The notes under the pieces were generated by a model. The model did not search any database. It was not told the DNA's origin and was given only the letters and a program-made list of their open reading frames with translations. From a virus, in the IMG/VR virus record IMGVR_UViG_3300037247_001602, positions 30,489 to 94,488 of that record: a DNA stretch of 64,000 nucleotides; one strand, 5' to 3'. Within the stretch, counting starts at the first letter, position 1. Every line of letters begins with the position of its first letter. Below are positions 8,884 through 61,241 of this stretch, in pieces. A program made the position numbers and the translations under genes.

Positions 8884-10028
8884 GGAATCCTCCCGTAGTA
8901 GACCTAGATAAGATCGCCGATGAGAATCTTATACCAAAAGGCGATCCCTGGTTGCACGTTCTTTTTGCTGCCGATGATCTCCACAGCCTGCTGAAACTTG
9001 GTATAGCCGATATGGATCGGCTCGTCTACGGAATATATCAGAATCGGGATCATGCGGAGATTCCGTGGCATGAGCTTGTTGGGCCAATCGAGGCGCAGCT
9101 CTACCATTGCGGATATCAGGCAGTCTGCGGCGGGAGGCAGTATGCTGAATCGTTCCGGACGGATCATACGAAAGTCGCACAGCTCCTCGATTGGAATTAT
9201 CGAAAAGACATAGAAGAAATGATTACGGGCATGGGATACCCAGCCTCGAAGAAGACTATGGATATTGTTCACGAGGCTCTTGGAGGCGCTCAGGCTCCTC
9301 CTATCCACGAACTGAATCAGCTCATGGCATTCGAGCAGGCGAAGGCAATCGCACGCACGGTGATGATGAATATCTATGTGAAATCCGCCCTGCGCAAGTG
9401 GCAGGAAGACGGAATCACAAGAGTCAAACGCATGGAGATGCGGGACAAGAAAACATGCCCGATTTGCAAAGCGCTAAACGGAAAAGAGTACGAGCTTGCT
9501 GATCTCATCAATTTGGTATATCCGTTGACGAACGATAGCCATCCTTCCTGCCGAGGGACCTTCATTCCGCTGATCTCTCTAGAGACCTACGATCCGAAAG
9601 TTCGTGAGATTCCGCTGGCCGTGGATTTCTCCGTTAGTGGAAACACGGCCAAGAATGTTCCCCTCGAAGTCAAGCCATGGCTCTACAGCTTCTTGAGAAA
9701 GCTCAAAGGACCGATCAGCGTGGAGTTCGATCCTACGATTACTGAGTCTTACACGTGGGGTCCTTTCGAGATCAGGATCAACCCCGATGCCCTGGAAGAC
9801 GAAGACGTGCGCGAGATCATTCTGGAATCCATTGCACATCAGATCTGGCCCACTTTCGAAGATAAATTCATCGCGGAATATATTCCGCTGATCCAATCCG
9901 GACTGGCGCATCCATCGAAGAGCTTTTCTAACAACAAAGAGTTATTCATCTATAACTACATCGCCCATAGGATGGGACAGGACCCAGATCCCTTCTCCAA
10001 TGCCTGGTGGCTCCAAAACGTAAAATAA
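8871..10028 (+). CDS. MuF/SPP1 gp7-like head morphogenesis protein with C-terminal extension
   Basis: IART...DKKTCPICKALNG...HPSCRG MuF signature; LDKIA near the N-terminus. Confidence 0.8.
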   Translation: MKNPWNPPVVDLDKIADENLIPKGDPWLHVLFAADDLHSLLKLGIADMDRLVYGIYQNRDHAEIPWHELVGPIEAQLYHCGYQAVCGGRQYAESFRTDHTKVAQLLDWNYRKDIEEMITGMGYPASKKTMDIVHEALGGAQAPPIHELNQLMAFEQAKAIARTVMMNIYVKSALRKWQEDGITRVKRMEMRDKKTCPICKALNGKEYELADLINLVYPLTNDSHPSCRGTFIPLISLETYDPKVREIPLAVDFSVSGNTAKNVPLEVKPWLYSFLRKLKGPISVEFDPTITESYTWGPFEIRINPDALEDEDVREIILESIAHQIWPTFEDKFIAEYIPLIQSGLAHPSKSFSNNKELFIYNYIAHRMGQDPDPFSNAWWLQNVK

Positions 10029-10260
10029 TGGGGTGGCCAGACAGGTTTCCCAGAATCCGACCACCCCTCTGGTGAGCAGTCAGAATCGATCTGACTACTC
10101 ATCCCCCCAGAGGAGATAGAGAGAAATATATCCTCAATCCATCTCCACTTTGCTTATACCTAAAAAGAGAGGCGAGATGGCATAGCCACCCGCCTCCCTT
10201 TCGCCGAGAGTGGACACAAGCGCTACGGGCGCGGTGTCCTGGAGGAAATCCATGTAGGTT

Positions 10261-10329
10261 TCAGTCTTTTGGTGATCGAGCGATAATTGAAAGGATGGCC
10301 AACACGAACTGGACTCCAAAGATGAACAT
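10261..10329 (-). CDS. putative 22-aa hydrophobic micropeptide
   Basis: MFIFGVQFVLAILSIIARSPKD; GGGGAG RBS 8 nt upstream; below the ORF-track cutoff. Confidence 0.35.
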   Translation of the reverse strand: MFIFGVQFVLAILSIIARSPKD

Positions 10330-10334
10330 ATTGT

Positions 10335-10580
10335 TTACTCCCCAATTGGGACCTTTTCGTCAGGAATCAATTCGCAGAATCCAGTAAAAACCTGAACTAG
10401 GCGAGGTAATCCATCTTCATTCATCTCGCCAAACCAAAGATCCACGTGTCCTCTGAAAACACCGCCACACGCCTCGTTGCGGATGATGACACCCATCTTA
10501 CCCTTGAGATCCGGATGCTTCTCCTCGCCATCATCCGGTACGCCTCGGTAGATCATGAAATCCCGAATTGTCATCACCAT
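10335..10580 (-). CDS. hypothetical protein
   Basis: GGAGA RBS; 81 aa. Confidence 0.65.
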   Translation of the reverse strand: MVMTIRDFMIYRGVPDDGEEKHPDLKGKMGVIIRNEACGGVFRGHVDLWFGEMNEDGLPRLVQVFTGFCELIPDEKVPIGE

Positions 10581-10728
10581 GTGAATTCTCCTGGCGAAAT
10601 TAGTTTATGAAATAGCGCGAGCCACCTGGATGATCCAGATGACTCGCGCTACCCGAACCAGGAGGCGCTTGCGGGCAAAGGGCTCTAGGCCTGCTTCTTG
10701 TTTTTTTCGCCTTCTGGGGGGGGTGCTG

Positions 10729-11106
10729 CTAGGCAGCCTTCTTGCTCTTCTTCATCTGTTCGACGGTCTCGCTGAGGCTCTCGAAGGAGTTCTTCAGGCC
10801 TTCCGCCAACTCGGCGAGATCGGTGACCGTCTTGTGCAGATCGGGCTGCTCGCCCTTGCCATCGGTCTCCGTCTCGGTCGTACCCTCTTCCTTCGCCTTC
10901 TCGGAGGAGGTCCAGTCGGCCACCTTGTTCGCGACGTACTGGACACCCTTGGCGGCGCCCAGAACACTCAGGTAGATGGCGCCCCCGACACCGGCGACGA
11001 TGGCGAGGCCCAGGCCGGCTGCGGCGCCCGCCTCCGCCACTTCACCCGTCATCTCGAAGAAGCCGATCTCAGCCGTCACTTTCCCCTTCTCGTCTCGAAT
11101 CTTCAT
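10729..11106 (-). CDS. GC-rich membrane-anchored hypothetical protein
   Basis: ATG at 11106 follows AGGAGGAG; one Gly/Ala transmembrane segment and a coiled C-terminus. Confidence 0.7.
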   Translation of the reverse strand: MKIRDEKGKVTAEIGFFEMTGEVAEAGAAAGLGLAIVAGVGGAIYLSVLGAAKGVQYVANKVADWTSSEKAKEEGTTETETDGKGEQPDLHKTVTDLAELAEGLKNSFESLSETVEQMKKSKKAA

Positions 11107-11194
11107 GGTTTCTCCTCCTTTGCCATGACAATGATGTGTAGGCAAGCCCTGCACCGTGCAGGACTTACAAGACTACACTTCTCTCGGTACTTTT

Positions 11195-11202
11195 CTTATA
11201 CC
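11195..11202 (-). promoter_or_regulatory. phage early promoter motif GGTATAAG (representative copy)
   Basis: Exact or near copies lie upstream of minus-strand units at 8928, 10153, 11195, 36194, 36385, 37080, 39061, 39120, 41652, 52420, 54443, 55111 and 61227. Confidence 0.7.
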
Positions 11203-11222
11203 GGATTTGGGCGTTGATTTTC

Positions 11223-11250
11223 TTGATTGTAAACCCTTACCATATATAAT
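11223..11250 (+). promoter_or_regulatory. sigma70-like promoter of the RNAP operon
   Basis: TTGATT-N16-TATAAT, 35 nt before the ATG. Confidence 0.6.
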
Positions 11251-11285
11251 TATATCCGAATTCCACCACCCGAGAAGGTCACGAA

Positions 11286-14200
11286 ATGCTCGACTTCGAA
11301 GCTCAGGCTAGGAACAGCGAGAAGAGTCTCGTCGCCGCCATCAAGGCGATATTCCCCTATGCCGGGAAGAAGCAGACTCTCATTGCAGAGCGTATTTGGA
11401 TCGACAAGGAAGCACGAACTTTCGGGGACTTTGGTTCTCAGAAAGAGGTGAAAGGCAAAGATAAAACTTGGGCAATGCCGATCTACGGCAAGTTTCGCCT
11501 CGTGGACAACGCCACCAATGAAGTCATCGATCGGATCGACAAGATGACCCTGGTGAACCTGCCTCTGGCTACCGCTCGCGGAAGCTATATCGTGCGCGGG
11601 AGCGAGTACCAGGTCGCCAATCAGTTCCGCCTGAAGCCGGGCGTCTACACAAGAATCCAGCAGAACGGAGAGCTTGAGTCCCAGGTGAATCTGGCGAAAG
11701 GCATGAACTTCAGGATTCTCCTGGCGCCCAACTCCGGGATCTTCTTCATGAAGCTGGGGGAGACGAAGATACAACTCTATCACCTGCTCACGGCATTCGG
11801 CGTATCCCGCAGCGCCATAGAATCGATATGGGGACCGGAATTGACAGCCAAGAATTCCAAGAAAGGAAGCCAAGATGGCGAGGTTAATAAAGCTTACAAG
11901 ATCATATTTAGGAAAGAACCGGAAAATCTAGCAGAGGCGATTTCGAGCCTTGAGACTTACTTTGCTGGCAATGTGATAGATCGGAGCACGACGAAGCTCA
12001 CGCTGGGCAAGGGATTCAAGAACGTCAACGCAGATCTATTACTGAGGACTTCTGCAAGGATATTATCTGTCTCTCGCGGAGAGGATAAGGCGGACGACCG
12101 GGACTCCCTGGAATTCAAGCAGCTCTTGTCGGTGGATGATTTCCTGAGAGAGCGCATCGATAAGAATGCGAATAAGATCAAGTTCAAGATGCGTTTCAAC
12201 ATCGATCGCAAGGACAACATCCGGGAGATTATGGGTCTTTCCACGTTCAATTATCCGATAGAGAGCTTCTTCACGGGCGGGGCAGAAGCATTCGGCGGCA
12301 ATACGGGGCTGTCCAGCACGCCTGAGCAGACGAATCCCCTGCATATGCTCTCGGAGACCTCGAAAGTTATCCTGTCGGGCTCCGGAGGGATCACCAACCC
12401 ATATCAAGTTACTGTCGAGGCCAGGGCCGTCCATCCATCCACCATGGGCTTTGTAGATCCCGTGCACACGCCGGAGTCGGATCGCATAGGTACAACACTT
12501 CAGCTTCCTCTTGGCATCAAGAAAAAAGGGCAGAAAATATTGGCGGGTTTCTATAGTGTCAAGACTGGGAAGGTAGTTGATCTAGCCCCCGATCAGGCTG
12601 CGGATTCAGTCGTTTCTTTTAGAGATCAGTATGACGAGAAGAATGGCAAGTTGAAGCCTAAAACACGGAACGTAAAGGCCTCTGTGAAAGGCAAAATATC
12701 CATAGTCCCAGCAAATGAAGTCGAATATGTCATCCCGTCGCCGCAAGCTATGTTCGGGATAGCAACAAACATGATTCCTTTCTTACAAAACGATCAGGGC
12801 AATCGCGCCATGATGGCTGGCAAGATGATGACGCAGGCGCTCCCTCTGGTAAATAGAGAAGCCCCTCTCGTCCGCGTCGTGGCTGGCAAAGGCGTGGTCT
12901 TCGAAAGTGTTGCCGGCCAGGGATTCTCGCACAGAGCGCCAGTATCCGGGACTATCACGAGCGCAACCGAGAAGGAAGTCGTAATCAAAGGGGCGGACGG
13001 CAAGCGCCATACCGTGTCTCTGTACGACAATTTCCCACTCAACTCAAAAACAGCATTCATCGATGCGGAAGTTGTCGTGAAGAAAGGAGATAAAGTCAAG
13101 AAAGGGCAACTGCTTGCCGATACGACATTTACGAAGGATGGAGACCTTTCGCTTGGAATCAACGCAACTGTCGCATATATGCCCTTCAAAGGCTATAATT
13201 TCGAGGACGGAATCGTCATCAGCGAGAGTTTCTCTAAGAAATTCACATCATCGCACCTCTACAAACTTACGACTTCAATAGACAAGCAGACTCTGATGAA
13301 CCTTGCCAAGTTCAAGGCTTACTATCCGGAAGCTCTGGATCTCGCTTCGGCCAGCCGACTCGACTCGGATGGCGTCATCAAGAAAGGCGAGATCGTGAAG
13401 TTTGGCGACACGGTAATGTCCGTATTGAGGAAGGAGGAGAAAGGCCCGGAGGATCTGATTCTTGGGAGACTGCACAGAGCATTCATTAAGCCGTACAAGA
13501 ACAAGTCGGTGTTATGGGAGGAGGAGGACGAGGGCGAAGTTGTCGATGTTATCAAAACGGCGAGGAAGATCGAGGTTCATATCCGTACTGCCGAGCCAGC
13601 GAAGATTGGCGATAAGCTGGCCGGCAGGCACGGAAACAAAGGCACGATCACTTTCATCGGCGGAGATGCCGAGATGCCCACTACGGCAGATGGCGAAGTC
13701 ATTGAAGTCCTTTTGAATCCCCATAGCATTCCTGGGAGAATCAATCCAGGCCAGATCCTCGAAACGGTTGCAGGCAAGATTGCCGACAAGCAGGGCCGGC
13801 CATTTGATGTGCGTAACTTCACTGGCAGAAATTATTTGGAGGACGTGGAGAGAGCCGCAAAGAAGGCAGGCGTTCAAGACAAAGAAGATCTCGTCGATCC
13901 GGTGACGAACCAGAGACTTCCTGGCGTTCTCGTCGGAAAGCAATATATGCTGAAGCTGGACCACCCGACGAGGAAAAAATTCTCTGCTCGCGCCCAGGGG
14001 AGTTACACAGCCGACTTGCAACCATCTCGTGGTAAACACGAGGGCGGGCAGTCGATGGACACCCTGACGCTCTACTCGATGCTGTCACACGGAGCAAAAG
14101 CAAACCTGAGAGAAATGGCCACGTACAAATCTGGGCGTAACGATGAAGTATGGCGCGCCCTCCAGCTTGGCCAAAGTCTTCCGGCTCCCGCTGTTCCTTT

Positions 14201-17200
14201 TGCCACCGAGAAATTCATCTCGATGGTGAAGGGTCTTGGCGTGGACGTGAAGAAAGACGGGAATACCCTGGCCCTGTCTCCGATGACGGATAAGAAGATC
14301 CTAGAATATAGTTCTGGATCTATCAAGAATTCAAAGATTGTGCGGGGCAAGGATCTGAGGCCGGAAAAGGGCGGATTGTTTGATCCGATCATCACGGGCG
14401 GTGTTGCGGGCACGAATTGGAATCATATCGAACTAGCTGAGCCGATGCCGAATCCGATATTTGAAAACGCGATCAAGGCTATCTTGGGAATCACGGGAAC
14501 AATCTACGAGGATATTATTTCCGGGCGGCGTTATGTGACTCCGGATGGACAAATCGTTCCTGAATCCACTGATGAGACGGAAACGGGTGGTATCGGCATC
14601 AAGATCTTGCTATCCAAGATCGATATGGACAAGAAGATCAAGGAGCTGTTGGTCCAAGCCAAGAAGAAAAAAGGCGCCGCCCTGGACAAGATCAACAAGG
14701 TTATTCGTTACCTGACAGCGCTCCAGAAGAATGGACTCAAGCCGACTGATTATATCATCAAAAACATACCCGTGATGCCGGCTCGTTTGCGCCCTGTCTA
14801 CCCGCTTCCGGATGGGAGCCTGAACGTAACCGAGGTGAACCATCTCTATAAGGATCTGATTGATCTGAGCGATCAGAATCGGGACTTTATAGCCCTGGAT
14901 ATGCCCGACCAAGATATAGCCCCGCTGAGGGAGAATGTCTACAAGGGCATGAGGGCTCTCGTCGGCCTGCAAGACCATCTCGGCGGAAGGGGATACAAGG
15001 GACTCATCGAGCAGATAAGAGGCAACACGAACAAGGAGGGATTCTTCCAGAACCGTATCATGAGCCGTCGCCAGGAATTCTCAGGGCGATCAACCATTGT
15101 CCCTGAGCCTGCCCTTGGCCTCGATGACGTAGCCATTCCCGAAGAGATGGCCTGGAAAATATATCGTCCGTTTATCGTCAGGGAGCTGGTTCGCCAGGGC
15201 TACAAAGACAGCGCCCTAGAGGCAAGGGAGGAGCTGGACAAGAAGACCCCCTTGGCTATGAGAGCCTTGCAGATAGCTATGGAAGACCGGCCTGTGATGC
15301 TCAACCGGGCTCCGTCGCTGCACAAATTCAGCATTATGTCATTCATGCCACAACTCACCACGGGTAAGGCAATTAAGATAAACCCCTTGGTGGTAAAGGG
15401 TTACAACGCAGATTTTGACGGGGACACAATGGCCGTCCATGTTCCGATCACAGAAGAAGCACGAAACGAATCGTTCAAAATGCTGCCGAGCAGAAATTTA
15501 TACAACCCGCGAAGCGGCGAACTGATGAACTATCCCACTCAGGAGGCGATTACCGGACTCTATCTATTCACGCAGAGCCCGAAGGGCAGAGCAACGCTCA
15601 ATGCCATTCTCCCTGCGGCGAAATACCACATCAAGGGACCATTGACTGCCAAGGAGATGATAAGCGTTCTGGATCGGATCTCGAAGGAAATGCCGAACCA
15701 ATTCACTAAAGTCGTCAATGCACTCAAAGATATTGGGAATAGAGCATCTTACGAAATGGGATTTTCTGTCGGTCTTGAAGATCTCAAGATGGATTATTCC
15801 TCCAGGGATAGGATATTTAACGAGGCCGAAAACGCAATCAAAAAAGTGAAAGGCGACAAGACACAAGCAATCATCGATGCTTATACAAGTGCGGCGAAGA
15901 AACTCGACGTAGCTCTTCTTGGGGACAAGCGACTAAGAGCCAACTCCTTCATGATTATGGCCAGATCTGGCGGGAAGGGAAATATAGGCCAAATCAGACA
16001 GATCTTGGCTGGGCCTGTCCTCGTCAAGGATGTTCATGATCGCACTATTCCGGTTCCGATTAAGAAATCATATTCAGAAGGGTTGGACTTGGCGGACTAT
16101 TGGGCGTCAATGGCTGGTGCCCGAAAAGGTATGATTGACAGATCCCTGCAGACTTCTATCCCTGGTGCATTCGCCAAGGAACTTCTCAATGTTACCGTGA
16201 ATCACGTCATCTCGATAGCTGACTGCAAGACTACACGCGGCGTTGAAATCCCAGTGGACGATTCTGACATTCTGGATCGTTATCTGGCGCGAGGGATCAA
16301 GGACGTAGCCAGAAGAAACTCGATCGTGACGGCATATGTGATCAAGAAGGCCAGAAAGAATAATGTGAAGACCCTGCTTGTCCGAAGTCCGCTGACTTGT
16401 GAGGCCGAACAGGGCGTCTGCCAAAGATGTTACGGGCTCTCGGATAATGGGAGGCCTCCTGAAATCGGGACGAATGTTGGAGTGGAGGCTGGCCAATCAA
16501 TGGCGGAGCCTGCCACCCAGATGGTTATGCGCAGTTTCCATACGGGAGGAGCCGCAGGAATGGCAGGCGGGATCGTATCTGGATTCACGAGAATCTCCGA
16601 TCTCCTGAAGATGCCCAAAATCCTGAAAAATAAGGCAACTCTATCCCGAGAGTCCGGGAAAATCACGAAGATAGACACCTCTCCGATTGGAGGATGGAAT
16701 GTCTGGGTTGATGACGAAGAGCACCATGTGCCTGCCGGAAGACGAGTTCTTGTCAAACAAGGCCAAACAGTCTCGATGGGCGACCGCCTCAGTGATGGCC
16801 CAATTAAGCCGCAGGAACTTCTCGAACTACGAAACATGCGTGAAACACAGGATTATATTGTAAATTCGCTCAAGGATGAATATTTGAATCAAGGCATCCA
16901 AATGAGGCGCCGCGTCCTGGAAACAGTCGTCCGCCCGCTGACAAATTCAGCCAGAGTAACGCATCCGGGTGGACACGAGGCATATGTGCCCGGCGATCAT
17001 GCCCCACTGACTATTCTCGATGCATATAACCGCAAAGCTAAACCTGAAGACAAGATCGAATATGAACCGATTATTCGGGGAATCAACACGGCGCCCTTGG
17101 CGAGCCAGGACTGGATCACGAGGTTGAATTTCCAGCGCCTCAAAGAAACGCTCATCGAAGGCCCCGCGCAAGGCTGGAAATCTGATATTGCCACAATCGG

Positions 17201-17306
17201 TGCACCCCTGGCCGCATATGCATATGGTCCACTGATCGGAAGAGAGCGCGAAAAAGCTGCTGAAGATACTGCCCAACTAGAGGAGATTGGCAGTGTCTCA
17301 GAATAG
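11286..17306 (+). CDS. rpoBC: single-chain fused beta-beta' DNA-directed RNA polymerase
   Basis: Beta motifs: HTPESDRIG, IPFLQNDQGNRAMM, GYNFEDG, GDKLAGRHGNKG, YMLKLDH. Beta' motifs: HIELAEP, NRAPSLH, NADFDGD (15405-15425), RSPLTC..CQRCYG, QSMAEPATQMVMRSFHTGG. Confidence 0.97.
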   Translation: MLDFEAQARNSEKSLVAAIKAIFPYAGKKQTLIAERIWIDKEARTFGDFGSQKEVKGKDKTWAMPIYGKFRLVDNATNEVIDRIDKMTLVNLPLATARGSYIVRGSEYQVANQFRLKPGVYTRIQQNGELESQVNLAKGMNFRILLAPNSGIFFMKLGETKIQLYHLLTAFGVSRSAIESIWGPELTAKNSKKGSQDGEVNKAYKIIFRKEPENLAEAISSLETYFAGNVIDRSTTKLTLGKGFKNVNADLLLRTSARILSVSRGEDKADDRDSLEFKQLLSVDDFLRERIDKNANKIKFKMRFNIDRKDNIREIMGLSTFNYPIESFFTGGAEAFGGNTGLSSTPEQTNPLHMLSETSKVILSGSGGITNPYQVTVEARAVHPSTMGFVDPVHTPESDRIGTTLQLPLGIKKKGQKILAGFYSVKTGKVVDLAPDQAADSVVSFRDQYDEKNGKLKPKTRNVKASVKGKISIVPANEVEYVIPSPQAMFGIATNMIPFLQNDQGNRAMMAGKMMTQALPLVNREAPLVRVVAGKGVVFESVAGQGFSHRAPVSGTITSATEKEVVIKGADGKRHTVSLYDNFPLNSKTAFIDAEVVVKKGDKVKKGQLLADTTFTKDGDLSLGINATVAYMPFKGYNFEDGIVISESFSKKFTSSHLYKLTTSIDKQTLMNLAKFKAYYPEALDLASASRLDSDGVIKKGEIVKFGDTVMSVLRKEEKGPEDLILGRLHRAFIKPYKNKSVLWEEEDEGEVVDVIKTARKIEVHIRTAEPAKIGDKLAGRHGNKGTITFIGGDAEMPTTADGEVIEVLLNPHSIPGRINPGQILETVAGKIADKQGRPFDVRNFTGRNYLEDVERAAKKAGVQDKEDLVDPVTNQRLPGVLVGKQYMLKLDHPTRKKFSARAQGSYTADLQPSRGKHEGGQSMDTLTLYSMLSHGAKANLREMATYKSGRNDEVWRALQLGQSLPAPAVPFATEKFISMVKGLGVDVKKDGNTLALSPMTDKKILEYSSGSIKNSKIVRGKDLRPEKGGLFDPIITGGVAGTNWNHIELAEPMPNPIFENAIKAILGITGTIYEDIISGRRYVTPDGQIVPESTDETETGGIGIKILLSKIDMDKKIKELLVQAKKKKGAALDKINKVIRYLTALQKNGLKPTDYIIKNIPVMPARLRPVYPLPDGSLNVTEVNHLYKDLIDLSDQNRDFIALDMPDQDIAPLRENVYKGMRALVGLQDHLGGRGYKGLIEQIRGNTNKEGFFQNRIMSRRQEFSGRSTIVPEPALGLDDVAIPEEMAWKIYRPFIVRELVRQGYKDSALEAREELDKKTPLAMRALQIAMEDRPVMLNRAPSLHKFSIMSFMPQLTTGKAIKINPLVVKGYNADFDGDTMAVHVPITEEARNESFKMLPSRNLYNPRSGELMNYPTQEAITGLYLFTQSPKGRATLNAILPAAKYHIKGPLTAKEMISVLDRISKEMPNQFTKVVNALKDIGNRASYEMGFSVGLEDLKMDYSSRDRIFNEAENAIKKVKGDKTQAIIDAYTSAAKKLDVALLGDKRLRANSFMIMARSGGKGNIGQIRQILAGPVLVKDVHDRTIPVPIKKSYSEGLDLADYWASMAGARKGMIDRSLQTSIPGAFAKELLNVTVNHVISIADCKTTRGVEIPVDDSDILDRYLARGIKDVARRNSIVTAYVIKKARKNNVKTLLVRSPLTCEAEQGVCQRCYGLSDNGRPPEIGTNVGVEAGQSMAEPATQMVMRSFHTGGAAGMAGGIVSGFTRISDLLKMPKILKNKATLSRESGKITKIDTSPIGGWNVWVDDEEHHVPAGRRVLVKQGQTVSMGDRLSDGPIKPQELLELRNMRETQDYIVNSLKDEYLNQGIQMRRRVLETVVRPLTNSARVTHPGGHEAYVPGDHAPLTILDAYNRKAKPEDKIEYEPIIRGINTAPLASQDWITRLNFQRLKETLIEGPAQGWKSDIATIGAPLAAYAYGPLIGREREKAAEDTAQLEEIGSVSE

Positions 17307-19314
17307 TTTGGACAGAATGCTTCTCATGCTCTCTGGCGATACACTTCAAGAGAAAATCGCGCAGTCAATCGTTGCGCCCACGCTTCAAGATACCAAAATC
17401 GAAACGGAGAAGATCGAACCAGGTCCAGGATTGAAAGAGGGCGTCCAGCTTACCCCGGCACAGATTGATTTCTCTAGATTCATCGCAGACCGTCGTGGGA
17501 TCGGAATCGCTGCTTGGAAACCTGGCGCCGGAAAGACACTTGGTACAATCGCTGCATTCCTGAATCTGAGGGCTCGGGGAGAGGCCAAGAAGGCAATCGT
17601 ACTTGTTCCCGCTTCATTGCGAGTGAACTTTGCTGAAGGAGGCGTCACTAAATTCACAGATGCCCAATATGGAATCATCGGGAACAAACAAGAAGCCGCA
17701 TCTTTCGCCGACATGGATGTTGAGCGCATGGGAGAGAAGGATTTTTATATCATCTCCCATGATATGTTTAGGGCTAACTCCGATTATTATTTGCAGAAAA
17801 CCGGCGCCGATACGGTCATCATGGATGAAATGCACCGTGTCAAAGATCCGCAATCCGTATTAAATGACGTAATCGAAAAGGTTGGCCCTACTGTCCGGAA
17901 TTTCATCGGCGCTACAGCAACGCCAGCAATGAATAAGCCCTTCGAGGCGATCGAGCTGAAAAATGTAATCAGTTCTCCCGAGGAACGATTCACGGAGAAG
18001 CAATTTACGCAAGCATTCATCGAGCGCGCTCCAAGAGATTTCTGGGAAAGAGTCCGAAGCTTGTTCGGAGGTAAACGCACCGGAGAGATCAAAGGATTCA
18101 AACGAAGGAAAGAGTTAGCCGAGCTGTTAGGTCGAACATTCCATTTTGCCGACCCTAAAGTTAAAGGGATGCCGAAGAAAGACGTTCAAATCATCGAAGT
18201 TCCGATGACCCCTACTCAGGAACAGAATTATCACGCGATCTTGAAGAAGAAACTGAACAGGCGCGAGCAACAGATTCTACGAGAGGGACAACTTTATCCT
18301 GATCGTGAAATGATCAAGATCCTCAACAAGGCCATGGCGACGCGCCAGCTATCAAACAACGCCAGGTGGGTTGAGGGCGATTTGCCAGAAAGAGCGGGAG
18401 CCGAAACGCCCAAAATACTGAGAATGACGAGAGACATTGAAGATCATATTAAGAGGCGACCTGATGCACAGATCATCATCGCATCGAACTTTGTTGGGTC
18501 TGGCGCGAAACTTATGGAGGCCATGCTCAAGCAGAGGGGTATATCATTCGGGAAATACTACGGGAAAGGCCAGGAGGGAATAACAGGGGAAACGAGAGAA
18601 CAGGCGATCAAGAACTATAACGCCGGCAAAGTCAAGGTTATGCTCATGACCGGCGCTGGCGCCGAGGGGCTGGATCTTCCGAATACGACGATGCACCTGA
18701 CGATGGACCCCCACTATAATCCCGAGAGAATCACTCAGCAAGAGGCTAGAGGAATCCGTCGTGGCGGGCAGGCTCATATTCCTCCCGAGAAGCGCAAAGT
18801 GATCGTGAAGCGCTATATATCAGTTCCCAGACAGGGATTCTCGATCGAGCGATCTATCTACCAGATCGCCGCAAAGAAGAAGGCCTTAGTCGATCAGCTA
18901 AAGCAGATCGGATTGGAAGCCCAGCAGGAGAGAGCGAGAAGAGATCCTGGACGCAGAAGGGCATTGGCCTTATTCTCTAGGCGCCAGCAGAAGCCTCAAT
19001 TACCCCAGGAGCCTGAGCGTCCCAAGCAGCCCATGATGAAAGCCGCTGGGAACGGGGGATATCTGAATGCTCGTGGTAATTTCGATGAGCACACAGTCCG
19101 ATTAATCGGTGGATCTCAGGCCGCATTCAATGTGGATTCAGGGGATACAATCGATCGAAAGTTCCATGCGCAAACTCGACTTGGGAAGTGGAGCAAGCGG
19201 AGAAAATCAACCTTGACGGGCAAGGAGCAGGCCCGGATGCGATTTACCGGGAAGACGGAAGGTAACCTAGGCCCGAACGAAAATGCCCAGCCGATAACAC
19301 GAGTAGGCTACTGA
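17287..19314 (+). CDS. SNF2/SF2 helicase-ATPase
   Basis: Walker A PGAGKT, DEMH, ATATP, GAEGLDL and QQEARGIR motifs; QEKIA near the N-terminus (true start may be GTG 17293). Confidence 0.9.
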   Translation: MAVSQNSLDRMLLMLSGDTLQEKIAQSIVAPTLQDTKIETEKIEPGPGLKEGVQLTPAQIDFSRFIADRRGIGIAAWKPGAGKTLGTIAAFLNLRARGEAKKAIVLVPASLRVNFAEGGVTKFTDAQYGIIGNKQEAASFADMDVERMGEKDFYIISHDMFRANSDYYLQKTGADTVIMDEMHRVKDPQSVLNDVIEKVGPTVRNFIGATATPAMNKPFEAIELKNVISSPEERFTEKQFTQAFIERAPRDFWERVRSLFGGKRTGEIKGFKRRKELAELLGRTFHFADPKVKGMPKKDVQIIEVPMTPTQEQNYHAILKKKLNRREQQILREGQLYPDREMIKILNKAMATRQLSNNARWVEGDLPERAGAETPKILRMTRDIEDHIKRRPDAQIIIASNFVGSGAKLMEAMLKQRGISFGKYYGKGQEGITGETREQAIKNYNAGKVKVMLMTGAGAEGLDLPNTTMHLTMDPHYNPERITQQEARGIRRGGQAHIPPEKRKVIVKRYISVPRQGFSIERSIYQIAAKKKALVDQLKQIGLEAQQERARRDPGRRRALALFSRRQQKPQLPQEPERPKQPMMKAAGNGGYLNARGNFDEHTVRLIGGSQAAFNVDSGDTIDRKFHAQTRLGKWSKRRKSTLTGKEQARMRFTGKTEGNLGPNENAQPITRVGY

Positions 19315-21688: not shown

Positions 21689-21750
21689 AGCAAGCCGGCT
21701 TACTGCAAGCAAGGCGCGATATGAAACTTATACCGGAACCATCTTGAATG

Positions 21751-26664: not shown

Positions 26665-26726
26665 CGGTATAAGAGCCCTACAGTTGGTTTTAGAAGGAGT
26701 CCTGAAGGAAATTGTGGGAGACCGGC

Positions 26727-36151: not shown

Positions 36152-37127
36152 TTGATTTCTCCTTTTCTCGGGCAGAATATTCTCTACATGATACTTATAC
36201 CGAATTCCAGGCTAAAAAAAAGAGGGGAGGAAAACCTCGACCCTCTTTTTCGCAACATCTAGGGTTCTTCTGGGAAAGGCAGTTCCTCACCCTTACGCTA
36301 GTCCATGACTCTTCTCCTTCCTGGCTTTCGCCAAACAACGGTCAGGCGGGGTTGGCCGGCATGCAAACTCTCATCGCTATTATCTTTATACCAGAAAAGA
36401 AAAGGAGGTTAGGCCTCCTCCTCTTCTTCTCCGGTCGCCTTAAGTATCATCTCAGATAGCTCCCGAAGCTCTTTCCCGACTTCCCGAATCATTATCTCGC
36501 ACTCCCCGGAATCTGTCATTCTCTGGCAGCGAAGAACATCGTTGCGCAGACTCGCCAACCTGTCTCTGATTCTCTCTATGTTGAGCTTCTTGAACTTGGT
36601 TTGCAGCTCGCTGTCGCGCATCGTCTCCTCCTCATGCCGCAAGGTGTAGCACTTCAGTGCGGAACTTCTCCCAACTGAGCCGGCGTTTCTCGCACATGGC
36701 CTCATGGGCGACCTGGAGAGCCTGTAGCATGATCAGTTCGAACTGTCCACGCTGCTTGACGGTGATCTGATGCTTCAGCCTCAGTTCATCACCCAAATCA
36801 TCATAGTATTTCATGCAGGCCCTTCTGTACCCAGTCCAGATCTCGCAGAAAATGAAATCCATCACAGACTGGTATCTGCCCATGTTCTTGCGAGCCGCCA
36901 CGTATTCCAGCGACTTCCACATCTCCGTGGAACCGTTCAACAAGTTCTCGACAGCAGGAAATATCGAGTCTGTGGCGCCGCCAGAAATCTTCAGTCCCTG
37001 CTCCATCGCCATACCTAGATTCATGCCCATCATGATTGGTCCTCCTATGCTCTCGGCACGATAAGTTTCCTCTGCAAATCTTATACCTTAAAAAAGAGAG
37101 GAGGGGGCGAGCCCCCCCTCTCTCTCC

Positions 37128-39014: not shown

Positions 39015-39207
39015 GCCAATCTCCTTGCTTCTCGGTTGAATGTGATAAGATCCCGTGATTTTTATACCTAGAAAAGAAGAAGATCAATTTGGCTAGAGTT
39101 AAGGTTCTCCTCCATGATTCTTATACCGAAAAAAGATAAAAGATAGAGGTAGCACTTGGAGGACCCAAGCTGCTTGTCGCTACCTCTGGGGGGATGTTGA
39201 GGATTGA

Positions 39208-41609: not shown

Positions 41610-41747
41610 TTACATCTCCTTTCTCGACTTATGAATAGTTCCTTCAGTAGTCTTATACCCGGATTGGTTGCTGAAATAGTCTGGACAATCGGGCGCACCT
41701 AAGTTATATTAGGTTCCCACGAAGTGTAAGTAGAGTAAGTAGGCGGG

Positions 41748-44596: not shown

Positions 44597-44624
44597 TTGA
44601 CAACTGTAGCACATCCTGCATAAT
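44597..44624 (+). promoter_or_regulatory. sigma70-like promoter with TGTAGCACA spacer element
   Basis: TTGACA-ACTGTAGCACATCCTG-CATAAT; near-copy of the 21751 promoter. Confidence 0.7.
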
Positions 44625-49508: not shown

Positions 49509-49509
49509 C

Positions 49510-50612: not shown

Positions 50613-53600
50613 CTTCTTTCCTTCTCCTCTCGCGGCTCATCTCATCAACCTGGGATTTGAGTTTGCTTTCCGCCAATTGGTTGGCAATTTCCTTCTCTTT
50701 CTTTCGCTGTTTTATCTCCAGACCTAGCAGTTCATGCGCGATATTCCAGGAAGTTCTGGCGATCATTTTAACAGGTTCAGCGAAGTCTTGCTGTAGATAT
50801 TTTGCCGCCACTGCTGGCACTACGGCCTTTATAAACCCCGTTCTCATCTCGGACAAGAGCCTTGGACTATGTTCTTCAGTCATCATGGTACTCCCGCTGC
50901 TGATTTAATGCGCTGAATAATACCAGCGACAGTTCCAATAAAGTAGTAGGCCGACTCGTCATGATCCACTCGGAAAATCTGGTGGTTTCCTGCCTTTTGG
51001 GCAAGTTCTAATCCTTCTTCGAATAGCCCGACTTCATTTACTCTGTCCTCAGAGTCGAATTGCACCCATGCATCCGCAATTTCCCATAATTCTAGAGATG
51101 CATCAGAGAGAATCTGTCGTCTGTCTAGATCTCTCAGTAATTTATCCAATTGTGGATTTGTTTTCATATTCCCTCCCAGCTAAAAGGGAGCGGATGCTCC
51201 CTGGGAAACTATGGATTAACCGCAGCTTTTTCCAAGATCTTGTGATAGCGAATTCCTGCTCTGGCGGAGATTGGAGACTTTCCCCAACCAACTCGCAGGA
51301 CATTGTAGACGTATTCGATTTGGATCGTTCCGTAGCGGTAGCGCCAGTATGCCTCGTGCCACCCATCCCCTTTGGGGTCATCGGAGTCATCGGCCAGTTC
51401 GGAGTCATCGCCCGCATCGGCGCGGGCCAGGAGACTGAATTCTTGTTCGCTCCTCCAACTGATTGTGCGTTCGAACTGTCTCGCAGTATCCAGAGTCCGG
51501 CAGGCCTCGAACCCCTCGATAGATCCCTCCAGTTTTGCTCCCTCGAACTCTTGTTTCACGCTGGCGATTCCCTCGGTGATGAGGATCTCTTTAAGCGCTT
51601 CAAGTGTCATTATGAGTTTCCCCCGTAGGTGCCTGTCTGTAGATAAACATCTTTTCACGGAAAAGATTGTCACCAAGCACCATACTATATTCAAGAATGT
51701 CGAGTTCTGGCGTGGCCTCGACAGTGCTGAAAACCAGATCCTGGAATTGCTTGGCATCGGTAAAAGCTTTGCATCGCGCATCTCTTTCGATGAGGGCGGT
51801 GATCAGCGCAATGAGTTTGATTCCTCCGCTATTGCCGTCAACGATTTGGAGGATCAGTTTCGCAAGATCCTGTTCCTTTTCCTGTGGCATCGTAAATCCT
51901 CCTTTCGTCAGGGCTTAGAGATGATCTGGTGAGTCCGTGTTCTTTGTATACGAACTGAGCGAGCTGTCCGAGTTCCCGTTCAACGTCCTTGAGGGTGATT
52001 GGATGGTCAACAGCCTCTTGAGTAACGGCAGCAATTGCTGCATCTTCACCATGCCTCTCCTCGATGGCCTCAGCGGCTATTATGGCCCTGTGGTAATCGA
52101 TCATCTCCGGATCATCCCCGAGCTTCCTGATGAGATCCGCCATATTGTCTTCGTCATGACTTTCGAGGAATCTAGCGCAGACCTCGAAAGCCTCCCGTAG
52201 AGACTTGCCCTGGTGGACACAGGCAGCACAGACAAAATCTGCCGCGAAGATCCCATCTAAAGGAGTAGCGTTTTCCACAAAATGCCCGCAAGGAAGCTTG
52301 GGGTGTCTATTGATTGAATCAACGGCTTCCTCCTTTTCTTCCTCCGGGCTATCAGAGTTTTTAAGAGCCATCTTCCACAACCTCCTTGTCTCGGTGAACA
52401 TGTTAACTTCTCCACTCTACTTATACCCCTAAAGCGGAGGGTTCTTGAGCGATTCGGCCAATCTGATTCTCCAAATATTATATCCCTGCGCCCATTTCTT
52501 TCCTTCGCCGCCCAGAAGGACTACCTCACAGAACAACGGCGGCTTCGGGGCTTCTAATGCGATTTGGACGATTTCCTTCAGGACCTCATACTCTCTAGCG
52601 CCAGCATCTTCTACGGCGAAAGAGAGTCTTGCCCGCAGACCTGTGAGAGCAGAATGCATTGGGCCATCGGCGAGTCCGTTTTCGTCGAGTGTCATAGCCA
52701 TAAGTGCGGCGATCTTCTCCAGTTCCTCCTGGACTTTAATAATGACTGCCCGGTGCAAGTCCCAGGGTTTAGGAGCCTTGTCGCCACTGCATTTGAGGCA
52801 GATCCCTCCACGATGCCATGTGGTGCCGCCGCCAGAGCAAAAAGTACATTTATCCATGATCTCTGTTCCATCGCCCCAGCAAGTAAGGCAAGATTTCGAG
52901 GCATATGACACACCATGAGGGCAAGTAGGAAATTGCACTTCAGCTTTTAGAAGCTCTATTTCCTCCTCCTTGCGCTGCAGTGATAGTTCTAATTCTCGGA
53001 TCTCTTCCATCGCACACTCTTTGTCCGAAGTCGTAGGTTCTGTCGAAGACTTGGATTCTTGATTCAATGTCATCAATCACCTCCGTTCGGATGGGAATCC
53101 ACTCTAGTGGTTTGCCCATAACGGCCTCGTAGAAGCGCCTCTCGATTAACAAATCATCGTATACCAGCGTCAGGAAGGATGTCAGTGACCTGATATGGGG
53201 TAGAGTGCGTGAGTCCTGAATAGTAAGCAGCTTCATCTCTTCTATAGAGTGAACAAGACCCAATCCTTTCTTCAAGTCGTCCATGAGAAGATTCAACAAC
53301 TTTCCCAATCTAGCCAATTGGGCGTAGGCTTCGTCTCTCTCCTTGATGATGTTCGTGATGTTCCTCGGATGCTTGGGGTAGCCGTCCAACCGGGTGAATT
53401 CGACGGCCCATTCTAGATCTGCTTCTAGTTTTTTGATTTTCGTCCTCAGCTTATCGTTCTCAGCATTCAGATTTTTGATAACAACTCTGCTATATTGGTC
53501 TGGATCAGATCCGTCATTATCAGGAAGCCAATCATGAACTGGCTCTAGCTTATCAGATTCTGGCATTACTTCTCCTTTGTCAGGCCTGGGACTACTTCCG

Positions 53601-55457
53601 CGAGGCTGGCAACATGTTTGAAAACCTTCCTGCCAGGCATTGCCGCCCACAAATGGTACTTATCCGCGTCTGTGAAATAGTTCCAGCCTCTTTTAATCGT
53701 CATGGTCGATACAAGTGTTGGGGAATCGAAGGTAACAAGGTAATCCGGCTTCTTCTGGCGTCTCTTTTCCGGATGAACTTTGCTTGCGTACACTGAAGAG
53801 GCAATGAAACGGTGTGCACTATTCCCATTGATGAAGATTTTTCTCCCTTGGAGATTCCTCAGGAAGTTAACTACTTTAATGCTGCGAAGACTTCTGAAGT
53901 ACGTGCCGAGCTGATAGATGATGGCGAGCTTAACAACGAATACCCACGGCATTGGGGAAGTCCCTTCGCTTGCTGTTTTTATCAGTGCCGCCCTACGTAT
54001 GATGGAACTTCTTTTGTCAAATATTGTTGCAAGATCTACCCGGAACATGAAGAGAGATAGACTCTTGTCTACCCGAACTGAGACCTCGACTACGTTTTCT
54101 CGCATAGTATTGTTCGCGAGAAACCCCCGATCTATATTTGGACCCACATATTCGATTTCGGGAAGCGGTTCATGGTAGTTATCCGTCATATATTCCAGCA
54201 TTCTTAAATATTGAGTCAGGGTATCGTGATGCATCTCGACGCTTCTTTTGAAATGTAGGGCGGGACGTACCATTTCCCCGCCAAGCTGCTTGTGATAGTC
54301 CTTTCCCTTCATAAGAGTTTTGGTTAGATTCTTCTTGCTTTGTTCGATGAGGTCACGGGTGCGTTGCATGTCTTTGCTGAGATCTTTGCGGCACCTTCTG
54401 AGCAATTCGCCGTAAGTAATCATGATCTACCTCCACGCCCTCCTTATACCTAAAGAAAGGGCGCAGGCCCTTTCAGAGATGCGATACGATGAACCGGGCA
54501 ATCACCCCTTCCCAGGTCACGACATGGCGATGCTTGGCCACTGGGAGATTCTCGAAGTTATGCAGTATATATTTTAGTTCATCGCCACCAGCCTGGACCT
54601 TCTCGACGAACTCGACGAGTACTCCCGAGGCAGCAACTGGCAAAGATTCGCCCACATGCCATTCGTATGTTTTCCCCGATCGATCTATAATGACAAGCAT
54701 GCTAGTCTCCCTTCAGTTGTGCGAGTGATTGTCCCTCAAACGGCCACACCACTTCTCCCGGATTGTCGGCCTCGTATGCTCGTGCGCATTCGAAGCAAGG
54801 ATGTTCCCAATACCCATTGTCGTTCAGTTCGCCGCTGCCGAATGTCAAACCGCTAACAACTCCTGTACTCACGCCACATTCTGGATTTCCGCAAGCCGCT
54901 CCAGTTGCAGTCCGCTCCGTCTGTTCACACTGATGACAGCGCGGCTTGGATGCATTATACAAACCGCAATAGTTACAGGTATATTCGTTGTCGCCCGGAT
55001 GCTGCTTAACCCACTCGCAGACACAATCAAAACCAAGGCTGGGATTGCCGCATGTGCAGTTTGCCATTGGAGTTCCTCCTTCTCCCGGCAAAGTTAATCG
55101 TTCTACTACTCTTATACCTAAAAAAAGCCGGGATCAGATTGAATCCCGGCTTTGGCATTTAACGTGCAGATACCCATTTGCCCTTACGAAGCCGCGCAAG
55201 AATCTTGCAGCACCAGTAATTCTTCTCGTCATGTGTTGTCTGTATCCTGGGCCTTCGCCACGTCAACCAAAACGTTCCTGCAATCGCCTGTAGCCACACG
55301 CAGTTCTTCGGCAACAAGTTTTCGATATTTTCAAAATCCGCCTGCTTGTCCCATTTGACGGTCTTCTGATGCCGCCAATTGTGATAGTACCTCCTGAATG
55401 CTTCACGTAACTTTTTCGACAGTCGTATTTTACTCATTCTCCATTCCTCTTGTTGGG

Positions 55458-57031: not shown

Positions 57032-57046
57032 AACGACTCCTTGAAA

Positions 57047-57138: not shown

Positions 57139-57147
57139 TCCGTAGAT

Positions 57148-57854: not shown

Positions 57855-58786
57855 TCATAGCCCCCCTGGAATCGTAAATCCATCTACCTTGCGGACTTCT
57901 ATTATATCCGAATAAACAAATTCCGCTCGGCACTGATAGCATCTGTCATGGGCGTTCAGTACGGAGCCTGTCTTTCTCACCATCAGCAAAGGCCCTATGC
58001 GGCAAACTGGACATATTGATGCAAGCCTACCTCCACTGTATCTTTGTAGTTCGCCATGTTTGACAATGACGACTTCAGCGTCTAGCCCCATCTGGAAGTA
58101 GTGAATCGATCTTCCTACGCTCATCGTATATGGCATCCTTCCATGGTTTCAACGGCGCCGATATTCATATCGAAGAATGTGCAGATCACGAATCGATTTC
58201 TCCTCATTTGATCTGCGGGGAAAGCGCATCTTACAAAATTGCACTGTAAGAATTCACAATTGGTCACTTTGCTTAGGTCTACATCTGTGAAATGGCATGT
58301 GTCAATTCCCATCAGGTTCAATACAATTTTACCGCCAGTGAATGATCCATTGCTAAAAAGGCCACACTCATAGAAGTCTACGAGTTTTGCTCCTAGTGTA
58401 TTCATCTCTTCTCCGGTGGCGCCACTTCGCCCACTCCTGATTCCAGCACGGTTCCGCAGTGGGAGCAAAGGAAGAAGAAGGGGGAGGTTTTCGATGGGAG
58501 ATGCATTCCCCTGGGTGCTAGCATATGGACATTCTTTTCACAATGTGGGCAATAGCTCTTTTCTGCCTTTTGGAGAGCATAGTCGCTAAGATCGATGAGA
58601 TGTGTTTCTTGAAGAACCTCTTTGCAGGTAGCGATCATGAGTTTCCTGTTCTTTTCTGGGACATTCTTCCAGGCGACAGCCGACTCATCACGAGTCTTAT
58701 ACCCATATCTAGACGCTAAGCGCTCGTATATCCCGTGAAACTTCTTTGCTAGTTCTCCTGGCGTCATTATTTTCTCCTCCCAGAGA

Positions 58787-60179: not shown

Positions 60180-60262
60180 TGCGAGTGGAGGGATTCGAAC
60201 CCTCATGCCCGAAGGCAACGGATTTTAAGTCCGTCGTGTATGCCAGATTCCACCACACCCGC
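60180..60262 (-). tRNA. tRNA-Leu(TAA)
   Basis: ACGGA-CTTAAAA-TCCGT; long variable arm; A73; no encoded CCA. Confidence 0.9.
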
Positions 60263-60446
60263 TTATGTTTTCACATCATCAACATGTTGCTCGACGATAT
60301 AAATGGCTTCGTGTTGTTTTGCGACTTCCCTCTCAAAGGCTTCGTTCTGATCGAGAAGATCTGCTTCGAGTGCATTTTCGCGAGCCAGATCGAGAACGAC
60401 TACCAAAGCTTCTGCCAATGTCATTGTGATCTCCCTGAATTAGAGA

Positions 60447-60530
60447 TGGTAGGACGGGACGGAGTTGAACCGCCACAGCCGAAGCGTCGCGTTTACAGCG
60501 CGGTGGGCTCTCCACATGCCCAGCCGTCCC
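60447..60530 (-). tRNA. tRNA-Tyr(GTA)
   Basis: CGCG-CTGTAAA-CGCG; long variable arm; ACCA. Confidence 0.88.
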
Positions 60531-60534
60531 ATAA

Positions 60535-60625
60535 CCGGGATCGTAGCATCGCAAGCCACCCATTATTGGTGGTCCGCATTTTCCGCCTATTTATGACGGC
60601 TGCGTTTTTAATGCGGCTCCCCCGG
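60535..60625 (-). ncRNA. structured RNA family A, unit 1
   Basis: CCGGG-GGAGCCGC...GCGATGCTACGAT-CCCGG. Confidence 0.65.
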
Positions 60626-60635
60626 AAATATAAAA

Positions 60636-60718
60636 CAGGATCATAGCATCGCCGAGGCCATAGGTTCAGCCCCTCAGCTCCTCCCGGTTAGAGCCGGGTA
60701 CTACGGGCGGCTCCCCTG
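60636..60718 (-). ncRNA. structured RNA family A, unit 2
   Basis: CAGG-GGAGCCGC...GCGATGCTATGAT-CCTG. Confidence 0.65.
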
Positions 60719-60726
60719 ATGTTTTC

Positions 60727-60827
60727 AGCTCAGATCATAGCATCGCGGCATTGGCAGTTTCAGGCCACCAATGTTTGTCCTGGTCGCGTCGGGGTATAAG
60801 CCCGATGACCTGGCGGCTCCCTGAGCT
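60727..60827 (-). ncRNA. structured RNA family A, unit 3
   Basis: AGCTCAG-GGAGCCGC...GCGATGCTATGAT-CTGAGCT. Confidence 0.65.
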
Positions 60828-60839
60828 TTGTTTCCTTAG

Positions 60840-60923
60840 TACGGGTGACTGGATTCGAACCAGCATGAGCTAAGCTCACAGCGCCCTTAACGCTGCGCGT
60901 CTACCAAGTTCCGCCACACCCGC
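60840..60923 (-). tRNA. tRNA-Leu(AAG)
   Basis: CAGCG-TTAAGGG-CGCTG; Leu-type D and variable arms; A73. Confidence 0.85.
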
Positions 60924-60930
60924 ATTATAC

Positions 60931-61197
60931 TTACTGGTCCTCGCCGTCGCCCTCTTCTGATTCAGTCATAGCGTCAGCCCAAGGGCCTTCGGCTGGAATC
61001 AGCATAATCATGGGGACCATTTCTTCCTGTGCTTGCCCGTCAGGATCAATTCCAGATGGTTCTTTAGTTTCCATCTCCTCGATGACAATCTCTTCGGAGT
61101 AAAGAAACTCGTCATCCGAATCTTTCCCGCAGGGGACACCTATCTCAATATGGTCCGGATACTTCTCAAGTGCTTCAATGAGATCTCGTTTTGTCAT
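60931..61197 (-). CDS. acidic hypothetical protein
   Basis: Begins MTKRDLIEALEKYPD; GGAG RBS; promoter motif at 61227. Confidence 0.7.
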   Translation of the reverse strand: MTKRDLIEALEKYPDHIEIGVPCGKDSDDEFLYSEEIVIEEMETKEPSGIDPDGQAQEEMVPMIMLIPAEGPWADAMTESEEGDGEDQ

Positions 61198-61241
61198 GGT
61201 CAGACTCCGGTATGATTCCTATTTGAATTATACCAGAAAGC

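Follow-up and report, generated by a model that had tools for sequence, protein, structure and literature searches.

GGTATAAG, a probable promoter core without a −35 box in a clade of phages that encode their own RNA polymerase

T4 late promoters carry the word TATAAATA at −10 and are read by gp55 on the host core polymerase, and in phage N4 the virion polymerase recognizes a hairpin in the early promoters and late genes are read by the host σ70 polymerase. The early promoters of phiKZ-like phages were found bioinformatically as conserved AT-rich words of about 10 nucleotides (nt) centred at −10, which are read by a virion polymerase (PMC7598289), and the promoters of σ28 (FliA) take the form TAAA-N15-GCCGATAA (PMC12784957). 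Here we analysed the 8-nt word GGTATAAG in a 64,000-nt stretch of the virus record IMGVR_UViG_3300037247_001602 (the window), which covers positions 30489-94488 of a 94,488-base-pair (bp) contig of marine-sediment origin that has 50% G+C and is rated 52% complete. For window positions 35000-42000, the sequencing runs listed with this DNA were two DNA runs from marine sediment and no RNA run. Judged from its sequence context, GGTATAAG is most likely the promoter core of a class specific to the clade of this phage, and it lacks defining features of each promoter family with which we compared it. In the numbering used below, TATAAG would be the −10 element (−12 to −7) and GG would occupy −14/−13, the extended −10 position, giving a core that spans −14 to −7.

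By their polymerase, the cultured relatives of this phage are Salmonella phage Arash (OQ632216; 34% identity) and the Vibrio phages D69, D148 and D181 (31%). Arash has the same 8-mer, the same A/T/G pattern downstream of it and the same short leaders, and it shares the genome layout of portal, polymerase, SNF2 helicase and particle genes. It differs in that its polymerase is split in two genes, its sites usually have a T before them and a stronger TAAAGTGTAA after them, almost none of its sites are fused to a terminator, and its particle genes use CTAAAATA and not TTGACA-N16-TAnAAT. Neither the Arash paper (PMC10585845; 0 occurrences of 'promoter') nor the papers on the polymerase clade mention promoters, we found no published description of the promoters of this clade, and the only literature hits for the word itself were primer sequences unrelated to it.

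In sequence, the closest of the compared families is that of σ28, which also has an 8-nt −10 region composed of a G/C dinucleotide (the extended −10) and an ATAA core, so that GG-TATAA-G of the phage and GC-CGATAA can be aligned through ATAA at −11 to −8. The two differ by G/T at −12 and by the conserved G at −7 of the phage word; moreover, σ28 needs a TAAA −35 box, which few sites have here. Arash, G002 and D69 (G-numbers denote clade genomes) have weak A-rich or GTTMAAY boxes. The likeness to phiKZ and AR9 lies in a strict AT-rich word near −10, without a −35 box, before early operons of phages that encode a cellular-type polymerase. However, the phiKZ and AR9 enzymes have split subunits and no σ70-family factor, whereas here there is one chain and the clade has σ70-family genes; their polymerase is packaged, which in this clade is known for Arash only, and the word itself differs. 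T4 late promoters likewise combine a strict 8-nt word of the −10 type, the lack of a −35 box and a reduced phage sigma factor (the last being our proposal for this phage), but they use the host core and form a late class, whereas the phage studied here has its own core and the word stands before non-structural genes. The resemblance to N4 would consist in a packaged polymerase for early genes, as proposed below, and in a two-class layout; a conserved hairpin is lacking here and the enzyme belongs to a different family.

Counts, strictness and placement of the word

The window holds 15 exact copies of GGTATAAG, 13 on the minus and two on the plus strand, against a mean of 0.82 and a maximum of 3 in dinucleotide-preserving shuffles. 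The 94-kb contig holds 20 (18 minus, two plus), compared with 3 and 2 for the reversed control word, and an unbiased count of upstream 8-mers on this contig ranked GGTATAAG first. Based on our own gene calls, 17 of the 20 exact copies are intergenic, compared with a 16% share of intergenic DNA (binomial p 2e-11), and in 11 of the 20 a start codon in the same orientation follows at a distance of 19-105 nt (median 46 nt). An initial annotation of the window, made from its letters, had described nearly all copies as intergenic and upstream of minus-strand starts and had suggested enrichment between genes and strand bias as a check; these numbers bear out both points. Its term 'strand-specific' stands as a minus bias, but the word is rather specific to gene orientation, as the plus copy at 26666 fronts a plus gene. 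All thirteen sites in that annotation lie where it placed them: exact copies at 8928, 10153, 11195, 36194, 37080, 39120, 41652, 52420, 54443 and 55111, and three variants, namely GGTATAAA at 36385 and 39061 and GGTATAAT at 61227. Five exact copies were absent from its list (minus strand, 21727, 31272 and 58696; plus strand, 26666 and 60793).

The word is strict. Besides the exact copies, there are 27 one-mismatch variants, barely above the ~25 expected by chance, and every position favours one base by 20:3 or better: NNTATAAG carries GG 20 times and any other pair at most 3 times, and GGTATAAN carries G 20 times and each other base 3 times. Among the 26 exact and variant sites of the contig, A at −11 and G at −14 are invariant, −7 carries G at 20 sites and T or A at 3 sites each, and −15 is mixed. 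The class in this phage thus departs from σ70-type promoters in two features, the required T at −7 and TG at −15/−14. The lack of a −35 box, also part of the initial annotation, was borne out: all upstream positions carry less than 0.5 bit except for one T four bases upstream of the motif, which is informative because of terminator T-tracts, and an A-rich (TAAA-type) −35 box occurs at 3 of the 26 sites versus a background of 6%.

The copies in the window are listed below, together with two features adjoining the copy at 10153; all promoter roles are predicted.

8928..8935, minus: GGTATAAG promoter core at a divergent junction, 44 nt before the gene 8248-8883 for a protein of 211 amino acids (aa)
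10022..10146, minus: predicted 125-nt RNA of three hairpins, the last followed by a U-tract
10153..10160, minus: GGTATAAG promoter core fused to the upstream terminator; heads the small structured RNA, with no open reading frame (ORF)
10163..10202, minus: putative intrinsic terminator hairpin of gene 10335-10580, its T-run ending 1 nt before GG; −28.3 kcal/mol, z −5.7
11195..11202, minus: GGTATAAG promoter core for gene 10729-11106, back-to-back with the promoter of the RNA polymerase gene
21727..21734, minus: orphan or antisense GGTATAAG, 16 bp from the −35 of a plus promoter; no minus gene downstream
26666..26673, plus: GGTATAAG, 38 nt before the small plus genes 26712-27646
31272..31279, minus: GGTATAAG that overlaps a Shine-Dalgarno sequence (TAAGGAG), with an ATG 10 nt downstream; promoter role doubtful
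36194..36201, minus: GGTATAAG promoter core, 42 nt before gene 35696-36151; terminator 13 nt upstream
36385..36392, minus: variant GGTATAAA, abutting the terminator hairpin 36393-36432
37080..37087, minus: GGTATAAG promoter core, 46 nt before gene 36632-37033; terminator hairpin 37090-37128, 2 nt upstream
39061..39068, minus: variant GGTATAAA, proximal of two tandem promoters before gene 37917-39014
39120..39127, minus: GGTATAAG, distal tandem promoter; upstream hairpin 39147-39185 with a 19-nt T-rich tail
41652..41659, minus: GGTATAAG promoter core for gene 41319-41603, back-to-back with the promoter of the terminase operon
52420..52427, minus: GGTATAAG promoter core before gene 51838-52371
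54443..54450, minus: GGTATAAG promoter core, with the ATG of gene 53566-54423 only 19 nt downstream; terminator hairpin 54455-54474 upstream
55111..55118, minus: GGTATAAG promoter core, 43 nt before gene 54702-55067; terminator hairpin 55124-55153 upstream
58696..58703, minus: GGTATAAG downstream of tRNA-Ser, possibly inside an ORF; status uncertain
60793..60800, plus: GGTATAAG antisense to a region of tRNA and structured RNA, no gene downstream; probably a chance occurrence
61227..61234, minus: variant GGTATAAT immediately following tRNA-Ile, with gene 60931-61197 lying 29 nt downstream

The tandem pair on the minus strand (39061-39127) places GGTATAAG and then GGTATAAA, 59 nt apart, before a single 365-aa gene (PHROG 5931). 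A copy directly after a tRNA gene, as at 61227 after tRNA-Ile, was seen in Arash too.

Four copies lie at divergent junctions, at 8928, 11195 and 41652 and at one position just left of the window; the strand switches that the initial annotation had recognized at the first three are thereby confirmed and joined by a fourth. Transcripts must begin at such junctions, and a new start is likewise needed at the approximately eight copies that follow a terminator. Along the contig, the coding strand alternates in blocks. Plus blocks carry the portal, the large terminase, other particle genes, a 2006-aa protein and an SNF2 helicase, and minus blocks carry small genes mostly without a family match, nine tRNAs and non-coding RNAs. 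The divergent junctions and the small-RNA unit headed by 10153 support a promoter class without a conserved −35, as the initial annotation had described it; the class fronts non-structural units on the minus strand.

Conservation and the predicted transcription start

We analysed five genomes in detail: our own contig, Arash, G006, G002 and D69. Arash has 31 copies of GGTATAAG, 1 on the plus and 30 on the minus strand, versus 2 and 3 of the control word, and 30 of these copies lie on the strand of the non-structural genes. Strand counts were 2 and 27 versus 4 and 7 in G006 (37% G+C), 4 and 13 versus 0 and 1 in G002 (61% G+C), which also has 11 copies of GGCATAAG, and 2 and 15 versus 2 and 8 in a further genome, G009. 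Among upstream 8-mers, the word took first place in Arash and G002, and also in G006 when words were ordered by their enrichment over expectation. In D69 GGTATAAG is not in excess, and the one-base variant GTTATAAG occurs instead, in 19 copies that show the same pattern downstream. Intergenic sites made up 79-95% of the motif copies in every one of the five genomes (p 1e-11 to 1e-17).

Closer to this phage, all three sites upstream of the polymerase gene, including the orthologues of 8928 and 10153, are kept in contig L147 (82% RNA polymerase identity). In a three-way alignment of the site at 11195 that adds contig L146 (60% identity), GGTATAAGA stands out as an identical island within a spacer that has otherwise diverged.

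Conserved bases also follow the motif. All five genomes have A at the second and T at the sixth base after it; at the seventh base, which is informative in this phage, Arash and D69, these three share G. Since TATAAG is taken as −12 to −7, the conserved bases are A−5, T−1 and G+1. The predicted transcription start is thus a purine with T before it (T−1/G+1), about 7 nt past the motif, with no −35 required. The gene after 54443 has a leader of 19 nt with a Shine-Dalgarno sequence from 9 nt after the motif, and in D69 the Shine-Dalgarno sequence begins 10 nt after it; such short leaders leave no room for a start further downstream than about 7 nt after the motif. We also considered the downstream nAnnnT as the real −10 element and rejected it, because it would put the start within or past the Shine-Dalgarno sequence where leaders are short.

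The unit headed by 10153 agrees with this start, as the first hairpin of the predicted 125-nt RNA opens at the predicted +1, the G that is the seventh base after the motif. The RNA folds at −69.8 kcal/mol (z −7.7; 0 of 200 shuffles as stable), has no Rfam match at 10022-10146 and is present in L147 with stems that are altered yet still pair. The stretch from the 36385 promoter to the next terminator folds no better than its shuffles (z −0.3).

Candidate readers of the word and the hairpins before it

The candidate enzyme and its neighbouring helicase are encoded in the window as follows.

11286..17306, plus: fused β-β′ RNA polymerase of 2006 aa, the candidate enzyme; Pfam Rpb2_6 (8.9e-59) and Rpb1 domains 1-5
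17293..19314, plus: SNF2-type helicase overlapping the polymerase stop codon; homologue of Arash gp217

Because the 2006-aa protein carries Rpb2 domain 6 together with Rpb1 domains 1-5, it is, by its domain content, a single-chain bacterial-type β-β′ RNA polymerase. We found more than 1300 homologues, mostly of about 2000 aa, on contigs of up to ~190 kb; P0001, at 75% identity, is among the closest database relatives. The clade always encodes its own core polymerase beside the portal gene, and the gene order around the polymerase is common to this phage and the cultured relatives. We also entertained the idea that the fused polymerase lacks the β flap tip and hence cannot read a −35 element; a flap-tip-like segment is retained in the fused enzyme, and the idea was dropped as non-discriminating.

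The GGTATAAG class is probably read by this single-chain polymerase together with a phage-encoded, FliA-like sigma factor of the type of Arash gp10. The initial annotation had likewise assigned the motif to phage machinery, and we regard this as the most likely reading, given that the word is kept from phages of Salmonella to that of an unknown sediment organism and across 37-61% GC, that it forms an island in diverged orthologous spacers, and that it has G at −7, where σ70-type promoters need T. Of the five complete relatives that we examined, Arash, D69, G003 and G006 each have two sigma paralogues and G002 has one. The gp10-type sigma is always in the particle module, a few genes before homologues of gp13 and gp14. 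In gp10, the Sigma70_r3 model matches at 9e-9 and the FliA/WhiG models, which give its best scores, match regions 2-3 only, far below their family cut-offs (45 bits versus 326), and the second type (gp196; D69 0246) aligns with RpoD regions 2-4. A factor in which only regions 2 and 3 are recognizable accords with a promoter that has a −10, a two-base extended −10 and no −35. Mass spectrometry of Arash virions detected β, with the most spectra of any protein, β′, the sigma factor gp10 and the helicase gp217 (PMC10585845). By analogy with the Arash particles, which hold polymerase, gp10 and SNF2 helicase, a holoenzyme would be delivered with the DNA; GGTATAAG would therefore mark early or pre-late promoters.

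Several observations weigh against this assignment. No sigma gene was found on the 94-kb contig by Pfam region 2 and region 4 models, TIGR02937, tblastn with the sigma factors of three relatives, or a clade hidden Markov model run at maximum sensitivity in six frames, so that the link to a sigma factor is drawn from relatives and from the contig edge: the left end of the contig is a gp13 homologue, just past the expected position of a gp10-type gene, and half of the genome is missing. The clade members G003, G007 and G008 are without the word, G003 showing no clear motif and merely a few copies of GGCATAAG. A T stands before the motif in Arash and D69 (TGG or TGT), which host σ70 could read as an extended −10. 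The authors of the Arash study noted that abundant enzymes may contaminate particle preparations (PMC10585845). Finally, about 10 host-like TTGACA-N17 promoters lie in Arash on the same, early strand as GGTATAAG, and the word could therefore mark a middle and not an early class. As a candidate for the sigma gene itself, we tried the gene of a 358-aa protein without family match upstream of the portal (L005:1633-2709, plus strand, extending into window positions 1-393). Its tblastn match to Arash gp196 was weak (E 0.4), and it proved to be not a sigma factor but a distinct clade-conserved protein; more than 20 clade members have it, at 4-11 kb on the upstream side of the polymerase gene.

A wider proposal, which we offer only tentatively, is that this very large and little described clade of ~180-kb phages brings its own holoenzyme, which would read GGTATAAG in any host phylum, and that back-to-back junctions, described below, are early/late switches at which two polymerases would compete for overlapping DNA. 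If true, the phages would carry a host-independent, portable transcription system of one polymerase chain, one small sigma factor and an 8-bp promoter, conserved across phages of Salmonella, of Vibrio and of unknown hosts in marine sediment. The word would then serve as an annotation rule in genomes composed mostly of genes of unknown function, marking transcription units and finding small RNAs such as 10022-10146, and would offer a simple system for how a sigma factor reads G instead of T at −7. With Arash in culture, the reading is testable now.

Bacterial promoters that have an extended −10 and no −35 are well established, which lends some weight to a different explanation: for the primary sigma holoenzyme of the host, GGTATAAG would be an extended −10 promoter that needs no −35, and the phage polymerase would transcribe other genes. 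TATAAG is one base from TATAAT, and T often precedes the word in Arash, D69 and G006 (TGnTATAAG). However, −7 is G in 31 of 36 Arash sites as well as in the 20 of 26 counted here, and T at −7 is one of the two bases held in pockets of sigma region 2 (cited in PMC7598289). Moreover, −15 is not T in this phage, the promoters with a −35 in the same genome all keep T at −7, the exact word persists across 37-61% GC and dissimilar hosts, and a one-base variant is fixed in D69. We therefore consider reading by the host holoenzyme unlikely, though with a real residual chance.

A phage sigma factor might instead redirect the host core, as T4 gp55 and SPO1 gp28 do, without involvement of the phage β-β′ enzyme. 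Phage sigma factors that capture the host core are well established (PMC7598289), and the sequence ties the motif to no particular core enzyme. Against this, the clade always has a core gene of its own next to the portal gene, the Arash core and gp10 are both abundant in particles, and the flap-tip-like segment is kept, so the fused enzyme could bind a sigma factor. These points leave host-core capture a small chance.

That the word is no promoter at all, and instead an RNA-processing site, part of a ribosome-binding site, or a site of DNA modification or binding, appears very improbable. The copy at 31272 does overlap a Shine-Dalgarno sequence and a few copies are coding or antisense, but the four divergent junctions offer no upstream transcript to process, the distance to the start codon varies over 19-105 nt, and one copy heads a small RNA that has its own terminator. 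In addition, the word resembles a −10 box and a Y−1/R+1 start context is kept.

The remaining explanation concerns the hairpins. We judged terminators by folding individual sites, as a genome-wide terminator scan was too noisy to yield a rate. Folding agreed with the initial annotation that a hairpin and T-tract directly precede the motif at 10153, 36385, 37080, 39120, 54443 and 55111, and at 36194 and one site outside the window they do so with a gap of 13-15 nt; the expression 'terminator-promoter cassettes' is thus fair for about eight sites. The hairpins have G+C-rich stems, energies of −13 to −28 kcal/mol (z −2.3 to −5.7) and T-runs of 4-8, and each stands after a stop codon. Because they carry T-tracts and sit at gene ends, they are, on this sequence evidence, intrinsic terminators of the preceding genes and not part of the promoter. 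They are present at ~8-9 of 26 sites here, and among relatives at 0 of 36 sites in Arash by the same criterion (one by eye), at none in G006 and G002, and at 3 of 19 in D69; their geometry varies (stems 8-17 bp, loops 3-8 nt, stem-to-motif distance 0-19 nt). The T-run ends 0-2 nt before GG at six sites, a weak T preference occurs just upstream of the motif in G006 and D69, and the L147 orthologue of 8928 has lost its T-tract and kept the motif; the T-run might thus contribute a weak T-rich upstream preference yet be dispensable. A PF00940 search for an N4/T7-type polymerase was empty, but likewise empty in every control genome, and the β-β′ fusion is the sole polymerase found. The suggestion of the initial annotation that the polymerase itself recognizes the hairpin, as in N4, can be set aside almost entirely, because despite the six window sites with a hairpin and T-tract before the motif, about two-thirds of sites have no hairpin, relatives have few or none, stem, loop and distance vary, all hairpins are at gene ends with T-tracts, the L147 orthologue of 8928 keeps the motif after loss of its T-tract, and the enzyme is of β-β′ and not of N4 or T7 type.

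A putative second promoter class and neighbouring genes

Six intergenic σ70-like promoters with a −35 (class TTGACA-N16-TAnAAT) were found, all on the plus strand and all with T at −7. Since this class ends in T and the GGTATAAG class in G, two recognition specificities coexist in one genome. The TTGACA class, which stands before particle and polymerase genes, would be read by the host holoenzyme or by the RpoD-like second sigma factor of the phage. Four members of the σ70-like group in the window are as follows.

11223..11250, plus: TTGATT-N16-TATAAT before the RNA polymerase gene, 20 bp from GGTATAAG; kept in L147
21751..21778, plus: TTGACA-N16-TAGAAT before gene 21787-22902
41682..41710, plus: TGGACA-N17-TATATT before 41748 (helix-turn-helix protein, then large terminase)
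44597..44624, plus: TTGACA-N16-CATAAT before 44654

At four sites GGTATAAG stands back-to-back with a plus-strand −35/−10 promoter whose −35 hexamer lies 16-22 bp from GG (11195/11223, 21727/21751, 41652/41682 and a fourth pair 815/785 nt left of the window). As the upstream halves of the paired promoters overlap, binding at one might exclude binding at the other. In Arash and D69, the operons of particle genes are preceded by the T4-late-like CTAAAATA (L012-L021 in Arash; L136-L145 in D69), which directly abuts three divergent GGTATAAG sites in Arash and was not found in this phage.

Three of the plus promoter regions share TGACAAnTGTAGCACA, which covers the −35 hexamer and half of the spacer (21751-21768, 44597-44614 and ~25.1 kb left of the window). 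Its conservation exceeds the needs of plain σ70 and hints at an extra factor or a phage sigma.

Seven plus-strand proteins, including the SNF2 helicase and a ligase-like protein, share (I/Q)EK(I/V)A within their first 20 residues; their genes start at 390, 668, 1584, 17293, 19314, 20097 and 25683 (window 390-26153). This N-terminal element may be a tag for capsid targeting or for the prohead protease; the polymerase itself is without it. Nine tRNA genes (four Ser, two Leu, Tyr, Ile and Arg) lie among small ORFs on the minus strand at 56299-63564. On the plus strand, 44654-48704 encodes three tandem paralogues of 437, 435 and 438 aa, which have near-identical N-termini (MLIRSEVTGKY...) and share the near-identical leaders CCGTCCCTAACAGGAGGG.

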